Shown here piece by piece: positions 6,742-59,580 of a stretch of 64,000 nt of DNA. The stretch is from Pristiophorus japonicus (taxonomy: Eukaryota). Position numbers and translations under genes: made by a program. Position 1 is the stretch's first letter, and every line of letters begins with the position of its first letter. The notes under the pieces are model-generated. The model searched no databases. It had not been told where the DNA came from and saw only the letters and a list, made by a program, of their open reading frames with translations. The stretch covers positions 143,654,001-143,718,000 of the forward strand of contig NC_091984.1 of assembly GCF_044704955.1 (NCBI RefSeq), in the 5' to 3' direction.

Positions 6742-7292
6742 CTCGGCTCATGGGACGTGGACATGGCTCACGTGGCGTGGACTCGGCCCACGGGGGGTGG
6801 ACTCGGGCCACGGGGCGCGGACACGGCTCACGGGGCGCGGACTCGGCTCAAGGGGCGCGGACTCGGCTCACGGGGCGCGGACACGGCTCACGGGGCGCGG
6901 ACACGGCTCACGGGGCGCGGACTCGGCTCACGGGGCGCGGACACGGCCCACGGGGGGCGGACACGGCCCACGGGGCGTGGACACGGCTCACGGGGCGCGG
7001 ACTCGGCCCACGGGGCGCGGACACGGCTCACGGGGCGCGGACTCGGCTCACGGGGCGCGGACTCGGCTCACGGGGCGCGGACACGGGGAGCGGGGAGCGG
7101 TCTCGGCTCACGGGGCGCGGACTCGGCTCACGGGGCGCGGACCGGACTCGGCCCACGGGGCGCGGACTCGGCCCACGGGGCGCGGACATGAGGAGTGGGG
7201 AGCGGACGCGGCTCACGGGCGCAGACACGGCTCACGGGGAACGGACACAGCTCACGGGGAACGGACATGGCTCACGGGCGCAGCCACGGCTC
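6742..7292. repeat. 20-bp GC/CpG-rich minisatellite (CACGGGGCGCGGAC[TC/AC]GGCT)n
   Basis: About 25 tandem units that abruptly replace the CR1 3' end. Confidence 0.95.
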
Positions 7293-7414
7293 AGGGGGCG
7301 CTATCCATTTCACCCCCCGCACCACCCCCCTTCCCAGGGAAGACAATGTCACACCCCGTCAGCGCCCCCCGGAGGCACTAAATGCAGACACACAGCGGGG
7401 GAATTTCATCCCCA

Positions 7415-17399: not shown

Positions 17400-17765
17400 C
17401 AGATTTACGAGGATGTTGCCTGGACTGGAAAATTTTAACCATGAGGAAAGATTGGATAGGCTGGGGGTGTTTTCCATGGAACTGAGGAGGCTGGGGGAAA
17501 CCTCATTGAGGTGTATAAAATTATGAGGGGCCGAGATAGAGTGGATAGGAAGGCTCTATTTCCCTGAGCAGAGGGGTCAACAACCAGGGGGCATAGATTT
17601 AAAGTAATTGGTGGAAGGTTTGGAGGGTATTTGAGGGGAAATATCTTCACCCAGAGGACGGTGGGGGTCTGGAACCCACTGCCTGAAAGGGTGGTAGAGG
17701 CAGAAACCCTCACCACATTTAAGAAGTACTTGGATGTACACTTGAAGTGCCGTAACCTACAAGGC
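17400..17765 (+). mobile_element. CR1 3' fragment
   Basis: Homologous to the 10960-11310 copy. Confidence 0.82.
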
Positions 17766-17985
17766 TCAGTCTCTGGGCTCACACTGAGACAATGAGCCCA
17801 CTTGGGGAGCTCAGTCTCTGGGCTCACACTGGGGCAATGAGCCCACTTGGGGAGCTCAGTCTCTGGGCTCACACTGGGACAGTGAGCCCACTTGGGGAGC
17901 TCAGTCTCTGGGCTCACACTGGGACTATGAGCCCATTTGGGGAGCTCAGTCTCTGGGCTCACACTGGGACAGTGAGCCCACGTGG
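17763..17985. repeat. 45-bp minisatellite with an internal hairpin, about 5 units
   Basis: Unit GAGCCCACTTGGGGAGCTCAGTCTCTGGGCTCACACTGGGACAGT. Confidence 0.92.
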
Positions 17986-18183
17986 GGAGGGGAGCTGTGC
18001 CCCAGCCAGAGGTAGTGCCTTCAGGAGTGAGATGGGGAGCAGAACACGGGCAGCCTGTGGTGTAGAGGGGAGACATTTCACCGGCCGAGGGCAGGTGCTG
18101 AGCCCATTTACCTGCAAGAATTTGGTAAGTGGATGGGGAAAGTGGGCCGGGCACTGAGGTAACGTCCTGTGTTACTGGTGGAA

Positions 18184-24204: not shown

Positions 24205-24990
24205 CAGTCCGTGAATATCGTGTGTATGTGGAGTGTGAGAGGCTGCAGCCCCTCTTCCACTATTTGAAGGGGCTGCTCCTCAATTTCTGCCTCCACTTCA
24301 GTCCCATGCTCCTGGGCCTGGTCACCAGGTGCAGGGGGAGTGGGCAGGTCGGCGGGCCCCCCGTGGGTCTCCTCCTGGGCCTGGCCACCCGGTGCGTGGA
24401 GAGCGGGCAGGTCGGAGGGCCTCCCCGTGGGCCTGTTCCTGGTTCGAGCCACCCGGTGCAGGGGGAGCGGGCAGGTCGGAGGGCCTCCCCGTGGGCCTGC
24501 TCCTGGGCCTGGCCACCCGATGTGTGGAGAGCGGGCAGGTCGGAGGGCCTCCCCGTGGGCCTGCTCCTGGTTCGAGCCACCCGGTGCAGGGGGAGCGGGC
24601 AGGTCGGAGGGCCTCCCCGTGGGCCTGCTCCTGGTTCGAGCCACCCGGTGCAGGGGGAGCGGGCAGGTCGGAGGGCCTCCCCGTGGGCCTGCTCCTGGGC
24701 CTGGCCACCCGATGTGTGGAGAGCGGGCAGGTCGGAGGGCCTCCCCGTGGGCCTGCTCCTGCGTTTGGCCAAGGTGGCCATGCACAGGTCCTAGTTGGAT
24801 GGGGCCCATGGGGTGGCTGCAGTGACTGCCTGCCTCCCTTCGGGATCTTTGTCCATACCCCGGTGACCCCGGGGATAGAGCTCAAGGTAGGCCTGAGGCC
24901 TTCTGCGACGGGTGGGCACCGCAGGGCCTGGAGTGTGGGGTGGGCAGGGAAAGAGCACGACCATTTCACTTGTTCACTTTCCTTTCATGT
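24205..24990 (+). mobile_element. Tx1-clade LINE ORF2 C-terminal fragment with an internal 64-bp tandem expansion
   Basis: VYVECERLQPLFHYLKGLLLNFCLHFSP...GLLL.LAKVAMHRS resembles the Tx1 zinc-knuckle tail; seven 63-64-bp units at 24310-24760. Confidence 0.65.
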
Positions 24991-29548: not shown

Positions 29549-30028
29549 TGTAAGGGGTGGTTTGCAGAGGGTCAGCTTTCCCTTCTGACCTTATATGAAC
29601 GGATCCGAATCGCTCCCACACCCTTGGTTCTAGACACTGGAATTATGAAGGGACTGTGACAGACTTGGAGAGACAATCGGTTTCAAGGTAGGAAGCAGCT
29701 ATGGCTTTATTGTGTTTAAAAAGAAGTAAAAGGCACACCTTTAAGAACACACACAGACCAATACACACTGAAGGGTACAACACATTGAATAAAATGTCAA
29801 ATTACAGCCTGTGGGGAAAAGAATACAGCTTAAACTCTAAATGGGGTAAAGAGGAGAATGCAGATACATTTACACAAGTTATCCCAGCCTCCCCCCTCCC
29901 AATTCCTCTAACTAACTAAGTTATAGCTCTGAGGGTTCAGGGGCTATGCTCACCAATCCCTTCAGACAGTTGCCGGTGAATCGCGGTTTCGGGGTTCGCT
30001 GCACTTGGCCTTCTAGGCGAGCCGTACC
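29549..30028 (-). mobile_element. Inverted copy of the distal 480 bp of the LTR
   Basis: Reverse complement of 37881-38359 and of 30033-30472. Confidence 0.92.
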
Positions 30029-30475
30029 CAGGAACCGCGATTCACCGGCAACTGTCTAAAGGGATTGGTGAGCATAGCCCCTGAACCCTCAGAGCTCTAA
30101 CTTAGTTAGTTAGGGGAATTGGGAGGGGGGAGGCTGGGATAACTTGTGTAAATGTATCTGCATTCTCCTCTTCACCCCATTTAGAGTTTAAGCTGTATTC
30201 TTTTCCCCACAGGCTGTAATTTGACATTTTATTCAATGTGTTGTACCCCTCAGTGTGTATTGGTCTGTGTGTGTTATTAAAGGTGTGCCTTTTACTTCTT
30301 TTTAAACACAATAAAGCCATACCTGCTTCCTACCTTGAAACCGATTGTCTGTCCAAGTCTGTCACAGTCCCTTCATAATTCCAGTGTCTAGAACCAAGGG
30401 TGTGGGAGCGATTCGGAACCGTTCATATAAGGTCAGAAGGGAAAGCTTACCCTCTGCAAACCACCCCTTACATAA

Positions 30476-30493
30476 TGGCAACCCAGATGGGAC
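30476..30493 (+). other. Primer-binding site, tRNA-Arg(CCG)
   Basis: TGGCAACCCAGATGGGAC is 17/18 complementary to the vertebrate tRNA-Arg(CCG) 3' end as I recall it (...GTCCCATCTGGGTCGCCA). Confidence 0.75.
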
Positions 30494-30546
30494 ACTGGTA
30501 CAAGGGACGTGATAAGAGAGAGGCTGGTTTCAGGAAACGAAGCAAA

Positions 30547-32260
30547 ATGGAAGAGGAGATTTCCTCGTATGTGTTTAAGAGGGTAAATGTGGCTAAGGAG
30601 TGGGTACTTGATCTATTGTATGCTGAGCATCCAGAAGATGCTGCAGCTCAATGGACCGAGAGCAAGGACCATAAAAAGTCGACAGAGAAGGCCATTTGGC
30701 TAATTTGCCTTCAGCAACAGATCCGGCTTCTAGATGAGGAGAATGAAAAATTAAAGGGAGTATTGAAACAGGCAGAAGAGAGGTCCAGCGCAAGGGCCAC
30801 AGTCGGGGAAAGGCTATGGACAGAGGTGGGACAGTTAAAAGAAAGTAGAGAGCTCACTAAAGAAAGGCACAAAACCCAATTGGACCATTTACAGTGTCAG
30901 ATTATTGAAGCCAAGAATAGCGAACTGGCATTGCGGGAAGAGAATTCCTGCCTCGCCAAGCAAGCTAAAGAGTACGGGCAGAGGGTGAGAAACATTCAGG
31001 TAGCCTATAAGGTAGCCAGTACCAGGGAATTTGAGGCAGGAGACCACGGCCCCTGCCAGCAGCAGATCCAAAGCTTGAACCTTGCTCTATCCCAGGCTAA
31101 AGGCATGGTGTGCCTGATAAACCCGGGTTTAGCCCAGAAACACCTGGTTGAGCAAGGAGAAACCCCTCAGTCACCGCCTGCAGCTCCCAGGAATGGCCCT
31201 GGGCAGCAGAGGTGTCAGCCAGAGTGCGGGGCAGGCAAGGATTACACCGGCATTCCCGAGTTTTAACTCAGCTTGGCAGCAGGGGAAAGAGGGCAAGCCA
31301 ATACAAGAAGGGCCGGAACCAGGGCCAATGCACCCAGTCCGGCAGCAGAAGTTTGGCCCACCTGATGCCAATGGGGCAGCAGGACCCCTAGAAAGCAACT
31401 TCGTAGTCCCCCACGACACCCAAAAACTGAGGGCTATGATCGGCCACCTAAGTAAGCTCACCCAACAGAGGGATCCCTTGGTACACTTCCTGGAAGTGGA
31501 ACACACAGGGGATATTAATGGGTGCGATGATTCAGAGCAGGCGAAGCTGTTGCTCTTCTCACTAGACACCAAGCTGTGCCATTCCCTCTCTGCAGACAGC
31601 AGAAAGGGGCGAAACACGTACGCTACAGTTAAGGAGGAGGTTCTAGAGGCCATAGGTATGAACGACGGGAGTCCTTTCTCCCGAGTGGAGAAAACAGTGC
31701 AGCTCTATGGGGAGACTCCACAGGCTTTCGCCGACAGGTTGTGGCCGGTCTACGAAAGGGCCTGTAGTGGGGTTCTTGACCGGGCCCACCTGACCCCTAA
31801 TGAGCTGGCTCACTGGCTCCGCAGCCTGGTGGCAAACAGCTTACCTGGAGTAAAGGCAAAAGCCTAGGTCTGGTTCGATCCAAGAGATCCCAGAACCACC
31901 GAGTAGACAGTGGTTAGACAGTTGACCCTGGCTTACTGGAACGGTGGAGGGACAGAGGAGCCCTCCTCTAAAGGGAGGGTCCATGAGATTAAACCCAGCC
32001 AAGGCAAGAGAGAGTGGCATCAGGAAGGTGGGAACCCTCCCCATAAAGGGGACAAGTGTTTTGGGTGTGGGAAAAGTGGGCACTGGAGGAAGGACTGTAG
32101 GAGCCCATGGAAAGAGACTAAGGGAAAGGCCACTTCAGCCCCAACCCATAAGGCCGGGGCAGGAACACCGAGTACGATGCGTTACGATGGAGGTGGAGAA
32201 AGTGAAAGGGACCTACCTGCTAGATACTGGTGCTTCCAGCACCCTTGTATATGCAGATAA
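30547..32260 (+). pseudogene. gag: gag (coiled-coil N-terminus, capsid-like region, CCHC knuckle), frameshifted with stops
   Basis: ORFs 30400-31266, 31148-31867 and 31910-32260; CFGCGKSGHWRKDC at 32057-32098. Confidence 0.8.
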
Positions 32261-35200
32261 CCCAGCTATCTCACCTCTATCGAACGGGGTCCCGTACAGT
32301 CTCGTGGGGTTCACAGGCAATGAGCAAACTGGTTCGTTTTCCATCCTGCTCACCATTCAGTTAGGGACACTCAAAACCAAATGGAAGTGTGTCCTGATGA
32401 AATGGGAGCAGAAGGGAAAAGGGATCCTGGGGGCTGATTTTATCATTGGCCACCAGATCCTAGTGGATCTCAGGAACCACTGTCTATGGGGAGCCATAGT
32501 GACTGACAGGGAAGGTGAGGTGGCGGTGATCCCAGAAAAAGGGGCCAAGGGAACATTGTGTACCGTGAAGCCAAAGGAGGGTTATGACTTGGAATTACTG
32601 GTCAGTAACACCCCAGTGGAGTACCAGGCATATGTACGGGCACACCTTGCAGCATTCGCCACCCACAAACATGACTGTGGCAGGGTAACGGGGGTGGAAG
32701 TTAGTATAAAAGGGGACCCCATGACCCGACCACAAAAGCAATATAACTTCCCCAAGGAGGCAGAGGCAGACCTGACAACAGCGCTGGGATTACTGGTAGA
32801 GCAAGGGGTGTTAAGACCGATAGCAACCCATGTGAACTCTCCACAATTCATGGAGGGCCACCGTGGACTATCGAGTACTAAATAAGAATATCCCTGCCTG
32901 TGCACCCACTGTAGCAGCCGTAGCGGATCTCATAGGGAGTATTCCAGCATCCGCGACCAATTTCACAGTGCTGGACATTTCAAGTGGGTTCTGGTCCATT
33001 TCTTTAAAACGGGAGGACCAGTACAAGTTCACCTTTACCTTTAAGGGCCAACAATACATTGGGAACTGTCTTCCCCAAGGCTTCCACAACAGCTCCAGCA
33101 TTTTTCACCAATGTATGGCGAACTGTTTAAAGGGCTTTAGCAGACCCCAGCAGTTGGTGCAGTATGTGGATGACCTGCTCCTGTTCACCGATCAGGGGGA
33201 GGAGCATGGCCCACTGCTGGCTGAGCTGCTGGAGCTGCTAAAAGAAGAAGGGTTTAAAGTAAACCCCAATAAGGCACAGGTCGGCCAGAAGGAAGTCAAA
33301 TTCCTGGGGTTGACTCCGCGCTGGGGAAAGGGCCATAGACAAGGCAAGAAGGGAGGCAGTACAAGAGTTACCAGCCCCCAACACAGTGACAGGGGTAAGA
33401 TCCTTTCTAGGACTCACCGGGTACTGCAGAGACTTCATTGAGGATTATGCAGCCACCGCAGCCCCTCTGCTCAGGCTCCTACACAAGGGTGTAGAGTGGG
33501 ACTGGGATGAGGGTTGCGAGGCAGCATTTAATCAGCTGAAGAAGAACTTGCAGACCGCGCCAGCCTTAGGAACGATAGATGTAGGAAAGGAGTTTTTCCT
33601 GGAGGTGGCAGCCAGCGGGGACAGTTTGAGCTCAGTGCTGCTTCAAGAGCGGCACGGCCAGCTGAGACTGGTGGTTTACTCCTCCAGGATCCTCACAGAT
33701 GTGGAAAAGGGGTACTCCAACTGTGAGAGACACTCCTAGCCACACATTGGGCAGTGAAAAGATCCTTGATCTTCACGGGAGGGTCTCCTCTTACACTCCT
33801 AACCCACCACACACCTACTCAGATGCTCCTAGATGGGAGGATTAAGGACGGGACGGTGAGCAGTGCCCGCATTGCTCGCTGGACACTGCTCCTCTCCCAG
33901 ATGGACCACAGAGTAGAAGGCCCCCGTGAGCCAATGCTCGCAGCCAACCTAATCTATCCAGGGAAAGCCCACAGGTGCTCCATTGAAGGGTTATGGGAGG
34001 TGAACATTGGCCTTCGGGCGGGGTTACACCCTACGGGCCGGGACATCTACGTGGACGGGTCCAGCACGGTATCTGTTGGCGAATGACTCACTGGGTGCGG
34101 AGTTTATGACCCAAGGGCAGGTATTGCCCTGGCAATCAAGCTCCCCAGCACCATGAGCACCCAGCATGCTGAACTTTCCGCCGTAATGTATGTGGTGACC
34201 CACCCCGAGGAATTCCCTACCCCGTACACGATTTGCTCGGACAGTATGTTCACCTACAATTCATATACGGAGTACCTGGCTCTCTGGTCCCGTCGCGGAT
34301 ACACGTCCGCTGACGGGAGACCCCTGGCAATCAAGCCCCTGCTGGAGAAAATCATGACAGCGGTGGGGGAAGAGGGAAAGGTCTACATACATAAGGTGAA
34401 GGCCCATTCAAAAACCGAACCCCGTGCAGAGGGAAACCAACAGGCTGACAAACTGGCCAAAGAAGGTGCCCGCACTGGAAAGTTCTGGGACCCCTATGAC
34501 ACCGGCCGCATAGCAGTGGTCAAGAATAAGAACAGGGCAGCAGAGAGTACAGGGACAGCCTTGGCCCCGGACTTAAAAACAGTTCAGGCACAGGACCCAG
34601 TCCTGAAAGCTGTCCTGAATGCGCTAGCTAGAGGAGAGAGAGTAGAAGGTCCGTACGGCACAGCAGCCATTACCGTTAAGGAAGGCATGCTGTTTAAAGA
34701 GGGACAATGGGTCGTGCCACAGCAGCACCAGAGGGAATTCCTAAAACTGGCCCATGAGGGTCCAGGACCGGGACACCCCGGGCCTGAGACCACCTGGCAA
34801 CGGGTGGAACAGGCAGGATGGTGGCCGGGACTCAGGGAGGACATGCGCGAGTTCTGTGCGAACTGCCTGGTGTGTGCTGCGAACAACCCTGACCCCCAGA
34901 AAAGGAAGGTGTCCCTAGGACACGTCAGGAGGGTAGAGGGACCATGGCAGTCAATCCAAATTGACTGCATCGGGCCCCTACCCACCGCCCAGGGAGGCTA
35001 CAAATACTGCCTCGTCCTGGTGGACTTGTTCTCAAAATGGGTTGAAGCCTTCCCCTGCTGAACAGCCACCGCACTAGGGACAGCTAAGATTCTAGTGAGG
35101 GAAGTGTTCTCCCGGTGGGGACTCCCACAGTATGTGGAGTCGGACCAGAGGAGTCATTTCACCGGGCAGGTAATGCAGGCAACCCTTAAGGTGCTCGGCA

Positions 35201-36267
35201 TTGAGGGGAAATGGCACGTTGCCCACAATCCACAGTCATCCGGTATTGTGGAGCGTTTAAACCGCACCATTAAAGAAAGGCTGCGGAAGGAAACGGGAGA
35301 CTCGCCCCAAAAGTGGGTAGAGGTCTTACCGTTGGTCCTAATGGGGATCCGAGCCAGTCAGTCAAAGAGCACGGGGTATTCCCCATACGAGCTCATGACT
35401 GGCTGGATCATGCGGACCCCCACCCATGTCCTAGCCCCGGTGCTCACAGAAGGTCAGCTCAGAGAGGTGAACCGCGACCGGTTTGTCAGGAACCTGTTTG
35501 AACACCTCAAACAGATTCACTGGCAGGCTGCTAGTAACATGGGCAGACAGCATCAGAGTAACCGATTGCTGCTAGAACCCAGCAAACACCACGAATGGGA
35601 GATAGGGGACCAGGTCATGGTGAGGAACTATGCTCGGGTCGGGGTTTTTGAAGCATTATATATGGGGCCACACAGCATTGTGGACAAGGCAAGCCCGATG
35701 GTCTATGCCATAAAGCTGCCCCGCCGTACTAAGTGGTTCCACATCAACCAGTGCAAGCTGTACAATCCAGGGTCAGCCAACCACAGAGGACAGCCGGGAC
35801 GGGTGAACTATCCTCAGGACAGGGACCCTCCGTTGGCCGCCCCCGACAGTGGAGGGCCCACAGGGAATGTGGCAGGCTCAGAAACCATGCCTATAGGGGC
35901 GGTGAATTGCAGTACTGGAGGGGCTATCCCACCCATCGTTTGGGATTCGGACGCACTCCCAGTAACCCAAGCCCTGAGAAGGACCCTCCATACGCCACGG
36001 CCAAAGATACCGTGGTCACCGGCATCTGAGCCTCAGCGATTCTACCCTAGGAGAAGGGCAGCCCGACAGGAAAGGCCGAAGATCAGAAGTACAGAGGCCG
36101 CTCAGAGTAGGGACCACCAGCCAGCCGCCTCCAGCGGTGAGGGTCTCACAGGAGCAGTAGCAACGAGCTTTCCCAGAGACAAGGGTTTCCAGCTCACCGG
36201 CTGCGGGGAAACCCTCGCACCCAGGCAGCTATCAGGCCGCACAAGCCATGGGCCTGACAGGGAGTAA
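32190..36267 (+). pseudogene. pol: pol: protease, RT, degenerate RNase H (tether), second RNase H, integrase
   Basis: LLDTGAS; LDISSGFW, LPQGF, QYVDDLL; LEVAAS..VYSSRILTDVEKGYS; IYVDGS, AELSAV, ICSDS, KVKAHS, GNQQADKLAK; HHCC, QIDCIGP, SDQRSHF, VERLNRTIK, YMGPH. Confidence 0.9.
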
Positions 36268-36828
36268 CCAGGCCACCCGGAGACCGGTGGCGGTTGTACA
36301 TAGCTCTACTTTTAGTTTAAGGCAGCTGACTGCAACATTTTACATTTTAAGGTTTAGTTTAGAATTGAGGTTAATGTTGCAGTAATGTTTAGGTGATTAT
36401 TTTGAGTTTGTCTTGTGTGTCAGCCAGCCTGAGAGCAGTTCTCAAGGGCAGGATCTAGACATTACCGGGTGATGGACAAACCTCAGGAGACCAATTGATG
36501 TTGTTTAGTTTTAATCTATGTTTTCTTTCCTTCTGTAATGTGGTTGTACATTGCCTATATGCTGGTGAATATAATGTAACTGAAATGAAATATAACTGTG
36601 CTGAAATGCAATTGTAGTAATTGAACCCCCTCCAAGCTGGGAGGGTATAAATGTAAAAAGTTTTTACCTGTAAAGGGGAAAGTGTGCATCTATGGTGATG
36701 TTGCATAAGTGTAATGCATTTTGGCTGTTAGTTTAGCTAATTTACGGGGAAGGTTATCTCTTGGGAGTCAGGAACTTTGCTCACCTCGAAGGATGATACC
36801 ATAAGTGATATGGTATCACAGGGGGGAA

Positions 36829-38359
36829 TGTAGAATTTACCAATATCTCGCAAAGATTCCAGGTACCTTTCCTCTGCAGAGGAGAAGAATCCCTTTCTGG
36901 ACTTTTAAAATGGAAGGAAAACTTTGGGACACAAATGAATTTTAAAGGGGCAGACGAGGCCTGCAGGGGATAAAAGGGGGTGCATTCATGGAGACCACCC
37001 CCCAGTGTTTGGACTCATAGGAAAGGGAATTTAATTTTGAACTATCTACCAGAAAGTTTGAAATCCTAAAGTGCACATGGAAGAAACTACGAACTTTAAT
37101 CGAATTTGAGATTTTTAAAAGGTGTATGTTGGGTTTGCAAGAAAAGGGGTGGAGTCAATATCTAAAGGGCCAGTTTGGACATTGGAACTAATCAAATTGT
37201 CTGGGAACTGTATACCCTCGAAACTTGCCCCTTGAAAACATTAGCATTTAAACAATGCCACATACATATTCCAACACCTTTTCAACAGGCATGGAAATAT
37301 CTGGCTCAGGCCAGACAAGCACAATGGAGAGCTCATCAACTTCGAAAAGCCTATTAACGCCAGATTAAAACCACTGAATCAAGTTTCAGTTAGCTGGGCT
37401 AGATTTGATGGGAGATAACGGAGCCTTTTTTTGTGGGTATATCTATTCCCAGTTTTACCAAGGAACAGACTCGAACAGCAGAACACAGACTCAAACACTG
37501 ACAGACACAAGCAGCCGGAAGTGGGGAGTGAAGAAATGGAGTAGTGAAGGAAACTACAAGAAATCATCAAGGACCGACTGAGCACGAGGCCCACGAAATG
37601 GAAGGTTGTCAGCAACCAAATTGACAACCCGGGCCACCACAACCAGCGAAACGACCAACCAAAACCAACTCAGAAAAAACCGAAGAATCGACATTTATTT
37701 CCACTCTACAATCTACTTCGGAATGACCAACGGGTGAGAAATGACCAAAAGGGACTAACTAAACTATTCCTAACCAAAGAAAGTGGGTACTTACCCCATA
37801 CATCCAAAACGCAACTTACCGCATCAATGGACGCACCCCAACCAAAGACTACGCAGTCCGAAGTCCTCTCCTCCGACCGAGGTACGGCTCACCTAGAAGG
37901 CCAAGTGCAGCGAACCCCGAAACCGTGATTCACCGGCAACTGTCTAAAGGGATTGGTGAGCATGGCCCCTGAACCCACAGAGCTATAACTTAGTTAGTTC
38001 GGGGAATTGGGGGAGGGAGGCTGGGATAACTTGTGCAAATATATCTGCATTCGCCTCTTTACCCCATTTAGAGTTTGAGCTGTATTCTTTTCCTCACAGA
38101 CTGTAATTGGACAATTTATTCAATGTGTTGTACCCCTCAGTGTGTATTGGTCTGTGTGTGTTATTAAAGGTATGCCTTTTACTTCTTTTTAAGCACAATA
38201 AAGCCATACCTGCTTCCTACCTTGAAACCGATTGTCTGTCCAAGTCTGTCACAGTCCCTTCATAATTCCAGTGTCTAGAACCAAGGGTGTGGGAGCGATT
38301 CGGAACCGCTCATATAAGGTCAGAAGGGAAAGCTGACCCCCTGCAAACCACCCCTTACA
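36829..38359 (+). repeat. 3' LTR, ~1.53 kb
   Basis: Follows PPT AGGGGGGAA; TGTA...TACA termini; AATAAA at ~38197; distal 440 bp match the 5' LTR fragment. Confidence 0.75.
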
Positions 38360-43367: not shown

Positions 43368-46300
43368 TATTATTTATGTATACTTGTATTTACTCTGTAC
43401 AGCCATCAGAGGGCTCATCCCCTGGAGTCCCAAAGGATCCCATAATCTCTTGGGAGCACAGGTATTTAAGGAGGCTTCACAGGTTAGAGAGGCACTCTGG
43501 AGACCTGCAATAAAAGACTACGGTCACACTTTACTTTGAGCTCACTGTTCAGTCTGACTCTTTCTCCATACACAACAACTGACGACGAGATACAGATAGT
43601 GAACCCAAAGATGCAGAGAACAGTGGGCATCCTGGAGAAATTCTCGGAGGAAGATGTTTGGAAAACTTTTGTGGAGTGACTCAACAAATATTTCGTGGCC
43701 AATGAGCTAGATGGGGAAGAGAGCACTGCCAAACGAAGGGCGAAACTCCTCACCATCTGTGGGGCACCAACTTATGGCCTCATGAAGAATCTGCTCACTC
43801 CAGCGAAACCCACGGAAAAATCATACGCCAATTTGTGCATACTGGTCCGAGAGCATTTGAACCCAAAGGAAAGCATTCTGATGCTGAGTTATCGGTTCTA
43901 CACCTGCAAAAGGTCTGAAGGCCAGGAAGTGGTGAGTTATGTCGCCGAGCTAAGACGCCTTGCAGGACATTGCGAATTTGAAGGACATTTGGAGCACATG
44001 CGCAGAGACTTTTTCATATTTGGGATTGGCTATGAAACCATACTTCGCAAACTTTTGACTGTAGAGACCCCAACCTTAATTAAGGGCATAGCGATAGCCC
44101 AGGTGTTCATTGCCATCAATGACAATAGGAAGCAAATCTCTCAGCACCAAATTGCTGCTACAAATACAGTGAACAAACTGATTTGTTTTTGAATCATAAC
44201 GTACAGGGCAGGTCACACATACCTGCAGCTACATGACCGCAGATGTCTCAGAGTCCACCATCAAGGGTGATGAGTGCAAGCTATTAACACCTTGTTGGCG
44301 CTGCGGGGGTGATCATCACTTCTATTCATGCCGATTCAAAGACTACGTTTGCAGGGAATGTAGTACAATGGGACGCCTCCAACGAGTGTGCAGGTGAGCT
44401 GCAAAGCCTGTTAAATCTGCAAACCACCAGAGGAGGACAGATCCACACAGGGTCACGACGAACCAGAGCCTCAGATCGAGGAGGCAGAGGTACATAGGGT
44501 GCACACATTCATCACGAATTGTCCCCCGATAATGCTGAATGTTGAACTAAATGGACTCCCGGTCTCAATGGAGCTGGACACGGGCATGAGCCAGTCCATC
44601 ATGCGCAAAATGACTTTCAAAAAGTTGTGGTGCAACAAGGCCTCGAGGCCAGTCTTAACTCCAGTTCGCACGAAACTAAGAACTTGCACGAAAGAACTGA
44701 TTCCTGTAATCGGCAGTGCTACCATAAAGGTCTCCTACGATGGAGCGGTGCAAAAGCTACCACTCTGGGTGGTACCGGGCGATGGTCCCACGCTGCTCAG
44801 CAGGAGCTGGCTGCGAAAGATACGCTGGAACTGGGATGACGTCCGAGTGCGATCGCCCGCTGACGACACTTCGTGTGCCCAGGTCTTAAACAAATTTTCT
44901 TCTCTGTTTAAACCATTCATCGGGAAATTCCAAGGATCAAAAATGCAGATCCACCTAATTCCGGCGGCACAACCCATCCATCACAAGGCGAGAGCAGTAT
45001 CGTACAAGGGTAGAGATTGAGCTAGACTGGCTGCAAAGAGAGGGCATCATTTCGCGGATCGAGTTCAATGAGTGAGCCAGTCCTATCATCCCAGTCCTCA
45101 AGGGAAATGGCACCGTCAGAATCTGTGGCGAATGACAAAGTAACTATCAATTGTTTCTCCCTGCAGGACCAATAGCTACTACCAAAGGCTGCCGACCTCT
45201 TTGCAATGCTGGCGGGAGGAAAGACGTTCACAAAGCTGGATCTGACTTCAGCCGACATGACGCAGGAACTGGAGGAATCATCGAAGGCCCTCACCTGCAT
45301 TAACATGCACAAAGGTCTTTTTGTTTATAACAGATGCCCGTTTGGAATCCGATTGTCGGCAGCGCTATTCTAGAGAAACATGGAAAGCTTACTGAAGTCA
45401 ATCCCGCACACCGTGGTCTTCCAGGATGACATCTTGGTCACGGGTCGGAACACAGTCAAGCACCTGCAGAACATGGAGGAGGTTCTTAGTCGACTCAACC
45501 GCATGGGGCTCAGGTTAAAACGCTCAAAGTGCATTTTCCTGGTGCCTGAAGTGGAGTTCCTGGGAAGAAGGATTGCGGCGGACAGCATCAGGCCCACCAG
45601 CGCGAAGACGGAGGCAATCGAGAACACACTGAGGCCGCAGAATGTGACGGAGCTGCGGTTGTTTCTGGGACTCCTGAACTACTTTGGTAACTTCTTACAG
45701 GATCTCAGCACACTGTTAGAACCACTGTATGTCTTACTACGAAAAGGGGATGAATGGGTTTGCGGCAAAAGCCAAGAAAATGCCTTTGTAAAAGCGAGAA
45801 AATTGCTATGCTCAAACAAATTGCTTGTGTTGTATGATCCATGTCAGCGTTTGGTACTAGCATGTGACGCGTCGTCAGATGGCGTCGGGTATATATTGCA
45901 ACAAGCTAATGATTTCGGGAAAATGCAACCAGTTGCTTTTGCATCCAGATGTCTGTCTGAGGCTGAGAGAGCCTACAGCATGATTGAGAAAGAAACGTTA
46001 GCGTGTGCATATGTGGTAGAGCAAATGCATCAATATCTGTTTGGGATAAAATTTGAATTGGAAACTGACCATAATTCACTTATATCGCTGTTTTCCGAGA
46101 GAAAAGGGATAAATACCAACACATCGGCCTGCATCCAGAGATGGGCGCTTATGTTGTCCGCATACAACTTCGCCATCCGCCACAGGCCAGCCACAGAAAA
46201 CTGCGCCGATGCTTTCAGCAGGCTGCCATTGGCCACCACAGGGATGGAATTGGCACAGCCCGCAGATCTAGGCATGGGTATGGAACCATTTGAGAGTGAG

Positions 46301-47892
46301 CAATCACCCATCACTGCCCGACAGATCAAAACCTGGACAAGCCAGGACCCCTTATTATCTCTAGTCAAAAGCTGTGTGCTTCACGGGAGCTGGTCCATTG
46401 TCCCAGTGGAAATGCAGGAAGAGATAAAGCCTTTCCAGCGGCGCAAAGATGAAATGTCTATATATGCAGACTGCCTTCTGTGGGACAATCAAGTAGTGGT
46501 CCCCAAGAAGGGCAGAGACACCTTCATCAATGACCTCCACTGTACCCACCCGAGCATTGTAATGATGAAGGCGATAGCCAGATCCCACGTGTGGTGGCCC
46601 GGTATCGATGTGGACTTAGAGTCCTGCGTTCACAGATGTAACACATGCTTGGAGTTAAGCAATGTATCCAGGGAGGTGCCGCTAAGTTTATGATCTTGGC
46701 CCTCCAAACCATGGTCTAGAGTACACATTGACTATGCAGGCCTGTTCTTGGGTAAAATGTTCCTTTGAGGTTGAAGAGCGTACTCCAAGTGGATTGAATG
46801 GGAGATAATTTCGGCTAGCACATCCGCTGCCACTACTGAAAGCCTGGGGGCCACCTTTGCCACACACGGCCTACCCAATGTGCTGGTGAGCGACAACGGG
46901 CCATGTTTTACCAGTGCTGAGTTCGAAGAATTCATGAGGGATCAAACATATCACATCTGCCCCGTTTAAACCAGCGTCCAATGCGCAGGCAGAGAGAGCA
47001 GTGCAAACCATCAAGCAAGGCTTGAAGAGGGTAACTCGCCCATCCCAAGTCCTGCTTAGCTACCGCACGGGACCCCACTCACTCACTGGGATCCCACCTG
47101 CTGAACGGCTCATGAAAAGAGCACTTAAGACAAGGCACTCGTTAGTTCACCCTGATCTACATGAACAGGTAGAGAGCAGGCTGGCTTCAACAAAGTACAC
47201 ACCGTGATAGCGCTAATGTGTCACGCGAGATTGAAATCAATGATCCTGTATTTGTATTAAATTATGGACAAGATCCCAAGTGGCTTTCCGTCACTGTCAT
47301 GGCCAAAAAGGAGAGCAGGGTGTTTCGCGTCAAACTTTCAAATGGACTCATTCAACAGAAACACTTGGACCAATCAAACTCAGATTCACGGACTATCCTG
47401 AGCAACCCACCTTGGACCCTACCGTTTTTGATCCCCCAACATACACATGAGGGGCAACCGGCACCACGGTTGACCATGAAGCAGAACCCATCATCCGCAG
47501 CAGCCCAGCAGGGCCCAACACACCAGGGCGCAGCTCAGCAAGGCCAGCTCCACAGCAGCCCAGTGAGGGCCCAACAAATGATTCAACACCAGCTTTCACA
47601 CCGAGATGATCAACCAGGGCAAGAAGGGCCCCAGATCGACTCACATTGTAAATAGTTACACTTTTGAATTTGGGGGGAGTGTTGTTATATATGTATACTT
47701 GTATTTACTCTGTACATCCACCAGAGGGCTCATCCCCTGGAGTCCCAAGGGATCCCATAATCCCTTGGGAGCGCAGGTATTTAAGGAGGTTTCACAGGTT
47801 GGAGAGGCACTCTGGAGACGTGCAATTAAAGACTAAACTCACACTTTACTTTGAGCTCAGTGTTCAGTCTAACTTTTTCTCCATACACAACA
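43368..47892 (+). mobile_element. Ty3/Gypsy LTR retrotransposon, complete structure but degenerate
   Basis: ~210-bp LTRs at 43368-43577 and 47683-47892, PBS-like TGACGACGAG, PPT GGGGGGAG; gag, PR (ELDTG), RT (FQDD), single RNase H (LACDAS) and IN (WWPGI, SDNGP). Confidence 0.92.
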
Positions 47893-48467
47893 CAGATCCT
47901 TACTGAAAAGCCACACTCAACCTCATCCTGCAGTGCCAATCCTCACATCCCCATCACTCTACCTTCCCTAATCCTGCACTTCCTTACTCACACCAACTTA
48001 GCTTGCACCTCCACTCATCCCCTCTCTCTATCTCCATTATCACATCCCTTTCTCACCAGCCACCCCTCACACTCACCCTCACCTCATCCAATCATACCAA
48101 CTAAGCACACAAGGGTAGGCACTTGGCTCTTTTAGCCAAATAGTAAATCTTTATTTTTAACATGTTGCCTTCTTGGACAGTGGAAGTGTCTCAGTGAGTT
48201 GCAGTGATTAGCGAGACATAAAATTACCCCCGCAATCGTGCTGAGTGTGAAAGGAATGATTTGTGCATTGTAGGGGTACTGTAGGGGTGCTGTTGTGGGG
48301 TGGTGCCAAACTGGTGCATCATGTGGCAGCCACAGTGCACAGTGTGAAGGGAAGTAAATGTGGCCACGGTGAGGGTATCCCTGGCCTTCCGGGCAGCAAT
48401 GTCTTCAGGTGCTGATGCCCCGTGTCCTGTGCAGCATCAGGTGATTACGGAGAATGTTGGTGCTGTG

Positions 48468-48902
48468 GTTGGTGTTGCTGGTGTGTCTGGTGCTGCTGGT
48501 GTGCCGGGTGATGCTGATGTGTCCGGTGATGCTGGTGTGTCTGGTGATGCTGGTGTGCCTGGTGATGCTGGTGTGCCTGGTGATGCTGGTGTGTCTGGTG
48601 ATGCTGGTGTGCCGGGTGATGCTGGTGTGCTGGGTGATGCTGGTGTGTCTGGTGCTGCTGGTGTGCTTGGTGCTGCTGGTTTGTCTGGTGATGCTGGTGT
48701 GTCTGGTGCTGCTGGTTTGCCTGGTGATGCTGGTGTGCCTGGTGATGCTGGTGTGTTTGGTGATGCTGGTGTGCCGGGTGCTGCTGGTGTGTCTGGTGAT
48801 GCTGGTGTGCCTGGTGCTGCTGGTGTGTCTGGTGATGCTGGTGTGCCTGGTGATGCTGGTGTGTCTGGTGCTGCTGGTGCGTCTGGTGATGCTGGTGTTG
48901 GG
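48468..48902. repeat. 9/18-bp minisatellite (GCTGGTGTGCCTGGTGAT)n
   Basis: About 24 units of 18 bp; open in several frames. Confidence 0.95.
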
Positions 48903-49129
48903 GCTGATCTTGGTGGGATTTTGAGGAACAAGGTGAGATTTTTTCAAGGGCACCGATGCGGATGGAATATCTGGCAGCTGAAGTTGAGATGACAGAAGCG
49001 ATCTGTCAATGGTGAGAGAGGTTGCTCCAAGGAGGTGCCAGTGAATAGAGAGTTTACTCCAAACACTTCCAACCAGCTTCAAGCTCAAATGTGTATTTCA
49101 AATCCTGAATGCTCCAGCTTCTGAGATTG

Positions 49130-54900: not shown

Positions 54901-55208
54901 GCCTAAGAAGAAGGATATTCAAGACGGAGATCGAAAGATTTTTGGATGTTAAGGGAATCAAGGGATACGGGGACAGTGCAGGAAAGTGGAGTTAATGTAG
55001 AAGGTGTGCCCTGATCTCATTGAATAGTGGAGCAGGCACAAGGGGCCGAATGGCCTACTCCTGCTCCAATTCTTTGGTTCTTATGTTCTTATGAACCATT
55101 GTTGCAGCTCCTGCACAGCGAGCTTCTGGGTCCAATGGCAATGGTGCCTCAGAGCCAGGGTGCCCCAGAGCGAGGGTGCCCCAGAGTGAGGGTGCCCCAG
55201 AGCCAGGA

Positions 55209-55448
55209 TTTTTTTTTTTTTAAATCCAATTTCGTTCCAGATCAACTCTAACGCCAAAGATCACTTTGCACCAATGTGTTTGATCTTAGGCCAAAAGGCC
55301 GAGAGGCGAAGTTGCACCGTTCCTGGAAATATTGCAATACCAGGTCGGTGCATGGAGTGGACGGGGCATGCCCCTGATCCAGCTCCCTGTCCAAAAATCA
55401 ATTCAATATCATGTCCCCAGAGAGGATATTAAACTGATAAGAACAGAT
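55209..55448 (-). mobile_element. U2 snRNA-derived SINE-like element B (U2 nt ~38 to end, second U2 5' stem, unique tail, poly(A))
   Basis: ATCTGTTCTTATCAGTTTAATATC...ATTTTTGG...ACCTGGTATTGCAATATTTCCAGGAACGGTGCAAC, then TCGCCTCTCGGCCTTTTGGCCTAAGATCAA, tail and A13. Confidence 0.85.
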
Positions 55449-55773
55449 TTTTTTTTTTTTTTTTAATTTTTCGTTGCCAATCTTTCCAATCCTTTGTCAA
55501 ATCACAAACGCCAGAGGTCACCTTGCACACATCAAGGATCACTCTGCGCCAATGCTCTTAGCCAAAAGGCCTAGAGCCACTGCACCGTTCCTGGAAGTAC
55601 TGCAATACCAGGTTCGTGCCATGGAGGTGGATGGGTCAAGCCACCCCACCCACCTCCTATTTCCAAAAAGCATAGGAGAACCACCTTCCTGATCCAGGGA
55701 GAGCCACTTTGGGGTCATGGTTATTCCCCTGTCAGGTCAGTTACGCATGATCTTAGCCAAAAGGCCGAGAAGT
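55448..55773 (-). mobile_element. U2/U1 chimeric SINE-like element A (U2 5', U1 5', U2 3' half, U2 5', tail, poly(A))
   Basis: CTTCTCGGCCTTTTGGCTAAGATCA; ACTGACCTGACAGGGGAATAACCATGA (U1-like); GATCAGGAAGGTGGTTCTCC (U1-like); ACCTGGTATTGCAGTACTTCCAGGAACGGTGCA; A17 tail. Confidence 0.85.
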
Positions 55774-56725
55774 GTGCCCCAGAGCCAGGATGCCCCAGAG
55801 CCAGGGTGACCAAGTGCGAGGGTGCCCCAGAGTGAGGGTGCCCCAGAGCCAGGGTTATCCCGAGCCAGGGTGCCCCAGAACCAGGGTGCTCCAGAGCCAG
55901 GGTGACCAAGTGCGAGGGTGCCCCAGAGTGAGGGTGCCCCAGAGCCAGGGTGCCCCAGAGCCAGGGTGCCCCACAGCCAGGGTGCCCTTGCTAGGGGTTT
56001 GGAGGAGTCGGCCTCCAGCACTGTGCGTGTCTCCCAGCACACCTTGCAGCCCATCCTTGGCAGCTTGCAAAGCATGGTGGGCTCGCAGAGAGAGGGTGGG
56101 GACCCAGAACTCACGCCACGTGTCACGGGGGAGGGAGCAGCAGCTATTGCAGCACAGGCTGGTGCAACGCAATCACTTACTGCTGTAATGGGCTCAGTGC
56201 TTGGTGGCATAAAGACTGGGTCTGCTCTCGTGCACGCTCAGTCCGCTCTCATGCATGCTCGGTCTGATCTAGTGCACGCTCGGTCTGCCCTCGTGCACGC
56301 TTGGGCTGCTCCCGTGCACACTCAGTCTGTTCCCGTGCACGCTCGGTCTGTTCCCGTGCACGCTCAGATCGATGCCATGCAAGCGCTGACTGCTGCCATC
56401 ATTTCTGGGTTCCCCGCAGTTCAACAGAGAGGTCATGGTGCCGAAGCAGGCCTGCAATCTGTGCTCGATGAGATTGGTCCGGATGCTGAGGCACTGAGGG
56501 GGAGTGGCAGTGGGTCGGTAGAAATGGAAGGTGTTGCCCTCTCTCAGGATATCAGCATTCCTCCCACCACTGCCACTTCACCATTGCAGTTGGCGCTGTC
56601 TGCACCCCAGCCGTCCGAGACTGCTGCTGCCCAGGCTGAGGTGGTGCAGAACTGGTCCAGGGCATCCTGCTAGGCCATGTACAGTCTCTGTATGGCATAC
56701 TGAGCAGCGGTGGGGGGGCGGGGTT

Positions 56726-56992: not shown

Positions 56993-59580
56993 TGTTATGT
57001 ATGCAACCCGAGGTAACCTGTATCACACCGGCACCAGAGGGCGTACCTGTTGGAGTCCCAAGGGCTCCCAGCATCCCTTGGGAGCACTGTATATAAGCAG
57101 GCCTCCCATACTGTACCAGCACTTGGAGTTTGAATAAAGGAGCTAAGGTCACACTCATGTCTACAATACTCACTTACATTACTTTATCATGAGCTTAACA
57201 CCTGGTGACGAGATAATGAACAATCATGCGAAAATGCAGAGAACTGTTGATACCCTGGAGAAATTCTCAGAAGGGGACGATTGGGAGATCTTCGGGGAGT
57301 GAATCGACCAATACTTCATGGCCAACAAGCTGGAAGGGGACGAGAACGCTGCCAAACGAAGGGCGATCCTCCTCACCGTCTGTGGGGCAACAACCTATGG
57401 CCTCATGAAGAATCTTTTAACTCCGGTGAAACCAACAACCAAATCATATGAAGAACTGTGTACGCTGGTCTGGGAGCACCTAAATCCGAAGGAAAGCGTT
57501 CTGATGGCAAGGTATTGATTTTACACGTGTCAACGGTTTGAAGGCCAGGAAGTGGCGAGCTACGTCGCCGAACTAAGGCGCCTTGCAGGACATTGCGAAT
57601 TCGATGGATTCCTTGAGCAAATGCTAAGAGACTTCTTTGTGCTTAGCATTGGCCATGATGTTATCCTTCGCAAACTATTGACGATTAAATCAACGAACCT
57701 GAGCAACGCCATAACGATAGCCCAGGCATTTATGACCACCCGCGATAACACCAAAACAAATTTCATGGTACAAAGAGGTTTCGGCAAGTACTGTACACAA
57801 AGTTACGTCATTTTCAGGTAGCAATGCATATGGCAGAACGTACACGCCTGCAGCTGCATGACCTCAGATGAACCAGAGTCTGCCATCAAATGTTAATGCG
57901 AGGCAGTTAACACCTTGTTAGCGCTGCGGAGGTGATCATCGAGTCCATCAATGCCGCTTCAAACACTGTGTGCAAAGTCTGTGGAACAATGGGATACCTC
58001 CAGCGAATGTGCAGACGAGCTGCAAACCCTGCAAACCACCACGTTGCAGAGGAGGATCGATCCATGGCAGATCAGGCTGAACTAGAGACTCGAACTGAGG
58101 AGGCAGAAGTGTCTGGGGTACACACCTTCACCATGAAATATCCACCGAGCATGCGAAAAGTTGAACTGGATGGAATTCCAGTATCCATGGAACTGGACAT
58201 GGGTGTGAGTCAGTCCATCATGAGCAAAAAGGCCTTCGACAGGCTGTGGTGCAACAAGGCACACAGGTCCAAGCTTAGCCCCATTCATACCAAGCTAAGA
58301 ATTTACACTAAAAAGCTGATCCCTGTTATTGGCAGCGCAGCAGTAACAGTCTTCGATGATGGAGCAGTGCACAAACTCCCACTGTGGATTGTACCAGGAG
58401 ATGGCCCCACACTGTTCGGCAGAAGCTGGCTGGGAAAAATCCTTTGGAACTGGGACGACATCCGAGCGCTTTCGTCCGTCGCCAACGCCTCATGTGCCCA
58501 GGTTCTGAGCAAGTTCCCGTTGTTGTTTGAGCGAGGCATTGGAAGTTTCTTGGGGGCGAAGGTGCAGATCCACTTGGTTCCCGGTACACGACCCATCCAC
58601 CACAAGGCACGTGCGGTGCCATACATGATGCGAGAGAAAGTGGAAATTGAGCTGGACAGGCTGCAGCGAGAAGGCGGTGGAGTTCAACGAGTGGGCCAGT
58701 CCAATTGTTCCGGTTCTCAAAGGCGATGGCACGGTCAGAATTTGTGGGGACTATAAAGTAACAATTAATTGTTTTTCGCTGCAGGACCAGTACCCGCTAC
58801 CCAAGGCAGACGACCTATTTGCGACCCTGGCTGGAGGAAAGACGTTCACCAAGTTGGACCTGAACTTGGCCTACAGGAGCTGGCGGAATCTTTGAAAGGC
58901 CTCACCTGCATCAACATGCACAAAGGTCTGTTCATCTACAATAGATGCCCGTTTGGGAATCGATTGGCCGCGGCAATTTTTCAAAGGAACACGGAGAGCC
59001 TGCTAAAGTCGGTTCCGCACACCATGGTTTTCCAGGACGACATACTGGTCACAGGTCGGAATACCATCGAACTCTTGAAGAACCTGGAAGAGTTTCTAAG
59101 TCGGCTAGATCACGCGGGACTCAGGTTGAAATGCTTGAAGAGTATTTTCCTGGTGCCAGTGGTCAAGTTATTGGGGAGAAACATAGAAACATAGAAACAT
59201 AGAAACATAGAAACATAGAAAATAGGTGCAGGAGTAGGCCATTCGGCCCCTCGAGCCCGCACCACCATTCAATGAATTCATGGCTGAACATGCAACTTCA
59301 GTACCCCATTCCTGCGTTCTTGCCATACCCCTTGATCTCCCAAGTAGTAAGGACTACATCTAAGAATCGCGGCAGACGGCATCAGACGGAGGCAATCAAG
59401 AATGCGCTGAGTACACAGAATGTAACGGAGCAGCGGACGTTCCTGGGATTCCTCAACTATTTGGATAATTTCCTCCTACCCAGGTTAAGCACCTTGCTAT
59501 ATGTGCTGCTACGCAAGGGAGATGACTGGGTATGGGGGAAATCACAAGAGGCTGCGTTTGAGAAAGCCAGAAATCTGTTA
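56993..59580 (+). mobile_element. Ty3/Gypsy element (5' LTR 56993-57200, PBS, gag, PR, RT), interrupted by CR1 insertions
   Basis: TGTT...AACA LTR and PBS TGGTGACGAG; proteins homologous to the 43368 element (LLTVCG.TTYGLMKNLL, ICGDYKVTIN, FQDD). Confidence 0.9.
59179..59361 (-). mobile_element. Short 5'-truncated CR1 insertion
   Basis: CR1 3' UTR with five TTTCTATG tail units inside the Gypsy RT. Confidence 0.88.

Follow-up and report, generated by a model that had tools for sequence, protein, structure and literature searches.

Does a retrovirus-like element with two RNase H domains and no env descend from the boundary between retrotransposons and retroviruses, or is it a retrovirus that has lost its envelope gene? 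The question is raised by an element at positions 30033..38359 of a 64,000-nt stretch of the genome of the cartilaginous fish Pristiophorus japonicus (assembly GCF_044704955.1, contig NC_091984.1, positions 143,654,001 to 143,718,000 of the forward strand), which we refer to as the window. An initial annotation had labelled it 'Loki/Odin/spuma-grade' and read it as a basal lineage near that boundary. Our analysis points to another answer, to which we give a probability of about 0.78: the window copy would be a defective member of a high-copy endogenous retrovirus (ERV) family, here called family A, which belongs to the grade of snakehead retrovirus (SnRV), had an env-bearing ancestor, lost env and continued to spread through the germ line by intracellular retrotransposition. 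In our judgement, this env-less family is an addition to the known, poorly resolved SnRV-related grade.

A canonical retrovirus, probably of the SnRV-related grade

The reverse transcriptase (RT) motifs LDISSGFW, LPQGF and YVDD reported initially are all present (Pfam RVT_1, E = 3e-31). We placed the RT in a tree of 96 rows (LG+G4), made up of 67 retrovirus-like and 27 gypsy-like sequences picked from 206 proteins and two rows for the element; 35 of these rows formed the reduced set for approximately unbiased (AU) tests, and the RNase H and integrase (IN) trees held 45 and 56 rows. SnRV (P0013), a protein like that of walleye dermal sarcoma virus (WDSV-like, P0144) and six Loki proteins were identified by visual comparison with the RT alignment that supplements the Odin paper. 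The canonical retroviruses were recovered with the element inside them (support 96/99 with 96 rows, 100/99 with 35), in an open grade with SnRV, frog and coelacanth rows, and turtle and bird rows. Loki (100/99) and gypsy fell outside, and class I formed a separate subclade. AU tests on the 35 rows rejected a grouping of the element with Loki (p = 0.009), with gypsy (p = 0.023) and with class I (p = 0.004). The element is thus of retroviral type and not an ordinary Gypsy element, as had been claimed, while the label quoted above fails. The element lies inside the canonical retroviruses, where a deep place withstands the AU test (p = 0.17). The phylogenies of RNase H and IN, which the initial annotation had proposed beside that of RT, likewise set Loki apart as a clade of its own, with deep nodes open.

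Sequence scores agree on the neighbourhood. In phmmer comparisons of the RT, frog/coelacanth-type Pols reached 247-275 bits, SnRV 205, Loki 122-179, foamy virus entries of the PDB 140-147, murine leukaemia virus (MLV) ~135 and Ty3 113, SnRV being the closest named virus by score. From the RT through both RNase H domains, the best protein matches were one unnamed Pol (84% identity), frog and coelacanth 'NYNRIN-like' Pols (41-46%), turtle-/bird-type proteins (36-37%) and SnRV (34%); in the RT itself, identity was 47% to SnRV and 52-57% to the frog and coelacanth Pols. A search of viral contigs for Pol relatives returned none. Our verdict from these comparisons is that the element appears to be a canonical retrovirus of the SnRV-related grade (clade Huo, or 'non-class I/II'). 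It is, we judge, probably not a foamy virus, given the bit scores, the CCHC box, the in-frame gag-pol junction and the modelled capsid fold.

Dual RNase H without env, as in Odin, and a tether that Pfam still recognises as a gypsy-type RNase H, as it does that of Loki, would also suit a first lokiretrovirus or Odin element from cartilaginous fishes, and over the RT-tether-RNase H region one Loki protein reaches 325 bits vs 301 for SnRV. We nonetheless consider this reading highly improbable. Besides the separate Loki clade in all three trees and the rejected grouping in the AU test, the primer-grip segment of the RT reads LPQGFHNS, the SnRV type, whereas the Loki and Odin rows of the published alignment have PFGY..S..F/WNIFLHK; among 53 scored places in the genome, the best matches to a Loki Pol reach no more than 34-36% identity.

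Two RNase H domains and a conserved tether

The initial annotation had taken a tether followed by a new RNase H as a mark of retroviruses, lokiretroviruses and Odin elements as against ordinary Gypsy, and had inferred a basal lineage near the boundary. This pair is the ordinary retroviral arrangement (PMC9040795, PMC7947760) and, being ordinary in all canonical retroviruses, dual RNase H alone cannot mark such a lineage. The domains themselves are as described: a Gypsy-type RNase H without its first catalytic Asp, then a second, complete one (RNase_H, E = 8e-17) in which each of the listed motifs (YVDGS, AELSA, SDS, KAH, GNQQAD) was found. The loss in the first domain is wider than had been noted, with A/H/H at the three catalytic positions in 21, 21 and 20 of 21 copies (window copy included; one site unread), whereas gypsy controls have D/E/D at the same positions in three of four cases and D/D/D in one. 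The second RNase H keeps its D, E, D, H and D in 18, 19, 20, 20 and 21 of the 21 copies, the remainder being unread by the motif scan. Decay of a single copy as the source of the missing Asp is ruled out, since A/H/H is common to the whole family; the A/H signature of the tether is also present in several frog/coelacanth-type relatives.

The RT-tether-RNase H region aligns end to end with the RT of MLV/XMRV (E = 5e-67). Between family A and a sister family, B (see below), the approximate ratio of nonsynonymous to synonymous substitution rates (dN/dS) was 0.06 in the tether, 0.03 in the second RNase H and 0.06 in IN, the three Pol domains in which it was computable, synonymous sites in RT being saturated. 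By these approximate ratios, the Pol of family A is under purifying selection.

Organisation of the element and of family A

The window copy and its immediate upstream flank are organised as follows (LTR, long terminal repeat).

29549..30028, minus strand: inverted copy of the 3' part of the LTR, head-to-head with the 5' LTR remnant; 97% complementary to 30023-30472, aligns to the 3' LTR
30033..30472, plus strand: 5' LTR remnant, last 440 nt only, with CA end; 20 differences to the 3' LTR over 439 aligned nt
30476..30493, plus strand: primer binding site for tRNA-Arg(CCG), with one mismatch in the window copy; read from the family copies and a matching tRNA-Arg(ccg) gene in the genome
30547..32180, plus strand: gag, broken, with an N-terminal coiled-coil-like region, capsid and one CCHC knuckle (~32054-32101); putative start codon
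32184..32470, plus strand: aspartic protease, DTG; Pfam gag-asp_proteas E = 0.001, under the curated cut-off, with DTG read in 17 of 21 copies
32800..33450, plus strand: RT, frameshifted in the window copy; RVT_1, YVDD in 19 of 21 copies
33560..33900, plus strand: tether, a degenerate first RNase H with A/H/H at the catalytic positions; RT_RNaseH_2 E = 2.5e-17, colinear with the MLV/XMRV connection domain
34045..34470, plus strand: second, complete RNase H; in-frame stop at 34084 in the window copy
34714..35763, plus strand: IN, with HHCC (H2C2), core, GPY/F-like motif and SH3-like end; stop at 35059 in the window copy
35764..36267, plus strand: Pro/Arg/Ser-rich tail of ~165 codons in the pol frame, ending in the pol stop; no family match
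36268..36819, plus strand: T-rich non-coding region at the expected position of env; no env remnant detected
36820..36828, plus strand: polypurine tract, immediately 5' of the TGT start of the LTR
36829..38359, plus strand: 3' LTR, 1,531 nt, TG...CA; a U3 block at 36910-37327 is 91-96% identical to the family B LTR

The ~550 bp of non-coding sequence without env that had been described between pol and the polypurine tract are confirmed: the pol stop is at 36265-36267, 561 nt from the 3' LTR, and tblastn of two env-type proteins of the same genome (the ORF3 of family B and a gamma-type env, both discussed below) against 36268-36819 gave no match. The same holds across the family. Genome searches yielded 4,713 first-look candidates with the RNase H region and 2,286 with IN, of which 40 each were scored; these figures are not copy numbers. 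From the best-scoring copies we sampled 20 whole stretches, selected with the RNase H region, and another 20 stretches of the 3' part, selected with IN. The non-coding region runs into the LTR in all of the first 20, two of which have internal pol deletions and two of which are 99-100% duplicates of the window copy, and in 19 of the second 20, one breaking off. None of these 40 copies, in which the initial annotation had suggested looking for env, matches either env-type protein. The Pro/Arg/Ser-rich tail of pol was seen in 19/20 and 20/20 copies of the two sets.

In family A, 18 of the 20 other copies have a readable primer binding site, 12 of them in exact form, and it matches the tRNA-Arg(CCG) gene of the genome; an Arg primer is also found in SnRV. 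In 11 of 15 readable copies a single TGA separates gag from pol without a change of frame; the codon after it is mostly CTA, and TGA-CTA is a readthrough context. After the IN core there are a GPH motif (GPY/F-like) and an SH3 match, and a Pfam scan of the element found no dUTPase. An exact 4-bp target site duplication (TSD) flanks 10 of the 13 copies that have both LTRs. The Kimura two-parameter (K2P) distance between paired LTRs is 0.012-0.045, with a median of 0.019 (13 pairs). The bulk of the insertions (K2P 0.012-0.025) would correspond to 27-57 million years at 2.2e-10, the rate assumed in PMC4422223, and to a tenth of that at the mammalian rate of PMC7947760, both rates being borrowed ones from which the true rate may differ. 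The LTRs of the family are mosaics of several U3 types. Tandem or nested layouts were seen at three loci (L036, L046, L050), where an extra LTR, primer site or polypurine tract adjoins the element's LTRs.

The CCHC knuckle reported in Gag was found again (zf-CCHC, Pfam E = 7e-5 in the window Gag) and is single in 20 of 21 copies; the coiled coil was judged from the sequence together with a weak HAP1_N match. A capsid model (predicted local distance difference test score, pLDDT, 77) fits the C-terminal domain of MLV capsid (CA) with Z 12.3 and a root-mean-square deviation of 2.4 over 85 aligned residues; Z was 9.8 for HERV-K, ~9 for Arc, PEG10 and PNMA2, and 5.3 for foamy virus. Foldseek with this model returned nothing at E<=0.001, MLV CA being best at 2e-3, and the capsid sequence had no match in the PDB. 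The only Gag relative that can be named is the skate Gag LOC144598870 of Rhinoraja longicauda, of unnamed product (44% identity). An in-frame ATG overlaps the primer binding site (30475-30493), and the gene model of the skate Gag begins at the equivalent position.

A sister family with an env-like gene

A related RT fragment, searched against the genome, gave 149 scored places, and 29 of the 30 loci examined belong to a second family, B, whose RT is 86-89% identical to that of family A in protein and ~74% in DNA. Family B has the tether residues and primer site of family A, a TGA at the gag-pol junction in 5 of 5 copies and an LTR of its own, 1.3 kb long. LTR-LTR K2P is 0.0023-0.0031 (4 of 6 pairs scorable), and a 4-bp TSD was seen in two of four. 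A third open reading frame (ORF3) follows pol in all 12 fetched stretches (L115-L126; one internally deleted, five cut by the end of the stretch), and its C-terminal half, used as a query, gave 106 scored places with 96-100% identity.

ORF3 has 777 aa from its first ATG and is preceded by a pyrimidine tract and AG that resemble a splice acceptor. It runs from a hydrophobic N-terminus (signal) through an immunoglobulin (Ig)-like segment, RQRR, a Gly/Ala-rich stretch and a coiled-coil-like region to one transmembrane (TM) helix near the end and a basic tail, with ten Cys, eight N-glycosylation sites and ~400 aa from cleavage site to TM. The Ig-like segment matches Ig_3 at E = 5e-4 (isolated piece) to 0.017, under the cut-off. 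By position and layout, ORF3 reads as an env. It carries neither an immunosuppressive domain (ISD) nor CX6CC and is therefore not gamma-type. Its Cys spacing resembles what we take to be the spacing of paramyxovirus F1, with no homology from any search or fold. Tentatively, and with somewhat less than even confidence, we suggest that ORF3 may be a fusogen of the paramyxo/pneumovirus F type (class Ib) with an N-terminal Ig-like module. The ESM Atlas offered an unnamed best match (0.83), and viral and metagenome contigs nothing; the AlphaFold model has a pLDDT of 31, which leaves the BFVD fold search uninformative. Strict-filter genome scans for Fusion_gly and Baculo_F found nothing, but they had no positive control, so absence is not shown.

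Two further observations concern env-like sequences. In a Pyxicephalus protein (P0003), the gene model continues beyond integrase, and residues ~1190-1290 hold a hydrophobic stretch followed by an Ig-like domain (Ig_3, E = 0.012), where an Ig-bearing env may begin; this piece has no significant similarity to ORF3. A further, distinct ERV family of high copy number in this genome carries a gamma-type env (TLV_coat, ISD, CX6CC; loci L052-L084; 78 scored, 30 examined), and its IN clusters with an Astyanax Pol, close to the base of class I. As a candidate for the env-bearing form of family A it was rejected, being another family (RT 41%, IN 40-47%, no shared LTR).

Probable loss of env and spread within the germ line

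How do the two families relate? A DNA tree of eight A and five B copies separates them as two sister groups (support 100), hence family A is not a deletion product of present-day B. The former also has its own Gag and LTR, and its insertions are older (LTR divergence ~1.9% vs 0.25%); 3' of IN, the match between A and B is limited to ~47 nt at the pol stop (36255-36301, 81%). The initial annotation had allowed that the element might be a simple deletion derivative within a known env-bearing ERV family. A relative with an env-like ORF does exist, the sister family (89% RT identity), but it is not a named family and A is not a simple deletion copy of it.

The absence of env in family A is most likely secondary. 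Loss is favoured over gain because B carries an env-like ORF and other members of the grade carry env (PMC4422223; PMC4299795). Could family A instead be a deep canonical branch that never had env, comparable to an Odin-like stage on the canonical side, with ORF3 gained later by B? A basal place among the canonical rows survives the AU test, family A shows no env remnant, B is the younger, ORF3 is without detectable homologue and the Gag features are gypsy-like. Still, env is present in SnRV of the same grade, in the lineage I element of elephant shark, which is defined by a downstream env (PMC4422223), and in CrocERV37-40 (PMC4299795), the capsid fold is nearest to MLV, and an extra independent gain of env would have to be paid for. 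We therefore regard a branch without any env in its past as quite unlikely.

A second alternative concerns the mode of spread. Family A, though env-less, might have spread through reinfection with the help of the Env of B, by co-packaging or complementation, and so not be purely intracellular. The two families use the same primer tRNA, and over a U3 block of ~420 nt the window-type LTR and that of B show 91-96% identity, far above their pol DNA (74-84%, synonymous sites near saturation), which points to recent exchange between them. However, the block reaches >=96% identity in just nine of the 40 A copies, a number that includes two duplicates of the window copy; the dated insertions of A (13 pairs) are older than those of B (four pairs); and recombination requires co-packaging inside a cell, nothing more. 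Reinfection with borrowed Env is thus also unlikely, if marginally less so than a family that was env-less from the start.

In the preferred reading, that of env loss followed by intracellular spread, the life cycle of family A would have been as follows. The LTR would drive transcription; Gag would be made alone, and Gag-Pol by readthrough of the one in-frame TGA. Reverse transcription would be primed by tRNA-Arg(CCG), the dead RNase H would have a structural role, that of a tether, the second RNase H would cleave RNA and produce the polypurine primer, and integrase would insert the product with a 4-bp duplication. Env would have been lost after the split from the ancestor common to A and B, and A would then have copied itself in the germ line, autonomously and inside the cell, as ERV-L did.

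Several points weigh against this reading, in addition to the Loki score given above. Family A retains no remnant of env, so its loss is inferred by parsimony, and as the best-scoring copies alone were sampled, rare env-bearing copies of A could be missed. ORF3 matches no known env in Pfam, beyond the weak Ig_3 hit, or in the PDB by sequence or profile. The AU tests leave standing both a grouping of the element with SnRV alone (p = 0.21) and a place outside all other canonical rows (p = 0.17), and the trees were built without foamy, ERV-L, class II or Odin rows, which were compared by bit score, motifs of a published alignment and fold. Finally, language-model features in the ESM Atlas put Gag nearest to Ty3/gypsy-type Gag clusters (best score 0.91).

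Damage and surroundings of the window copy

The window copy is a dead, defective element. It has frameshifts near 31243, 32180, 32844, 33320 and 33720, in-frame stops at 31865, 31904, 34084 and 35059, and is ~190 nt shorter near 32180 than other copies. The extent first given to it stands, with a correction at the 5' end, where the LTR is reduced to its last 440 nt and an inverted LTR piece lies directly upstream. These head-to-head pieces (29549-30472) replace the 5' LTR here and likewise in a near-identical duplicate on the same contig (L031), which has the same inverted-LTR structure and the same flanks; a smaller, similar inversion occurs in L034. Two stretches of the contig (L031, L032) are 99-100% identical to the window copy and have one or both flanks in common with it, being either a segmental duplication or an assembly duplicate.

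Two neighbouring elements in the window are ordinary gypsy-type: one at 43368-47041 with a single RNase H, as the initial annotation had stated of its comparator at 43368, whose D/E/D motifs are intact, and a fragmented one at 57500-59600. The second comparator, placed at 56993, is a gypsy-like fragment. Minisatellite arrays lie at 6659-7298, 17764-18033, 24290-24865, 48365-48940 and 55109-56404, with units of 20, 45, 64, 9/18, 16 and 21 nt.

Implications

A large env-less ERV family is hereby added to the poorly classified SnRV-related grade, and the loss of env followed by germ-line amplification, known from mammalian ERV-L, would have occurred in cartilaginous fish as well. With the young, env-bearing B beside the older, env-less A, the effect of env loss on copy number becomes measurable within one genome. 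The lead most worth following is the env of the sister family. For the origin of retroviral env, Wang and Han give four scenarios. An F-type Env on a canonical Pol, if true, would bear directly on this question: carried with an SnRV-grade Pol, it would make a third retroviral lineage with such a fusogen after foamy viruses and lokiretroviruses, and would favour the view that the ancestral retroviral Env was of F type. Families A and B would then show, within one genome, the states after and before env loss, followed by an exchange of LTR sequence between them.

Comparison with known systems

A literature search found no description of family A, nor any of an SnRV-grade Pol accompanied by an Ig-bearing, non-gamma env, most subscription papers, Repbase and Dfam lying outside that search; the ERV sets in the supplements of PMC6001957 and PMC10435555 may already hold families A and B. 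Further related work is found in PMC12690878, PMC13524379, PMC12583693, bioRxiv 2024.07.05.601823 and bioRxiv 2021.11.23.469661.

Metaviridae (Ty3/Gypsy) have a single active RNase H; family A differs, and its RT lies outside the gypsy grade. Loki and Odin share with it the dual RNase H and a well-preserved tether, and Odin (PMC9040795) is also env-less, whereas the RT, RNase H and IN of family A fall outside the Loki clade and its RT motifs differ from those of Loki and from the Odin rows of the published alignment, the comparison with Odin being one of motifs, as the tree has no Odin sequence. The available sections of PMC7947760, with five chondrichthyan genomes in Table S2, contain no report of Loki from cartilaginous fish. 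Loki Env is similar to the F protein of Mononegavirales (PF00523), and its layout of signal, RxxR, fusion peptide, coiled coil and TM matches that of ORF3 in family B, as layout only, ORF3 having no such Pfam, PDB or fold match. Foamy viruses (Spumaretrovirinae), whose Env is F-like (PMC11468914), also have the dual RNase H and gave the top RT-core score among solved structures (147 bits). Family A differs from them in its CCHC box, in-frame gag-pol, capsid fit (Z 5.3 to foamy virus, 12.3 to MLV) and RT scores (140-147 bits vs 205-275 for the SnRV grade).

With class I (gamma/epsilon, ERV1), family A has in common the 4-bp TSD, zinc finger, GPY/F-like motif, readthrough junction and MLV-like capsid, with an RT outside class I. 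ERV-L/ERV3 elements (MuERV-L, HERV-L, XtERV-S) resemble it as env-less retroviruses amplified in the germ line, a mode of spread known from ERV-L (PMC8278194), and XtERV-S has an in-frame gag-pol TGA. ERV3/ERV-L and ERV4 are characterised by a 5-bp TSD and by the lack of a zinc finger and GPY/F motif (PMC4299795, Table 1), whereas family A has CCHC, a GPY/F-like motif, no dUTPase, YVDD instead of YIDD, a 4-bp TSD and an Arg instead of a Leu/Ser primer.

The best database matches to family A are the 'NYNRIN-like' Pols of Pyxicephalus, Rhinophrynus, Aquarana, Xenopus and Latimeria, which are unclassified gene models and were compared as proteins only. Family A is unlike SnRV in having no env or accessory ORFs, no extra domain between RNase H and IN, a very long LTR and a high copy number. 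Between RNase H and integrase, the SnRV Pol (P0013) has an insert of ~190 residues with two HxT/S motifs, which we take to be suggestive of a 2H phosphoesterase. SnRV-related ERVs, which correspond to clade Huo (Xu et al. 2018) and CmiERV lineage I (Han 2015), are known from elephant shark, coelacanth, zebrafish and amphibians (PMC4422223, PMC6001957, PMC4977317). SnRV Gag has a coiled-coil N-terminus and one zinc finger (PMC2717909), and SnRV/Ovex1-related ERVs are marked by a GPY/F-like motif plus zinc finger (PMC4299795). Family A is like SnRV and its relatives in its canonical RT outside class I, YVDD, tether and RNase H, coiled-coil Gag and single zinc finger.

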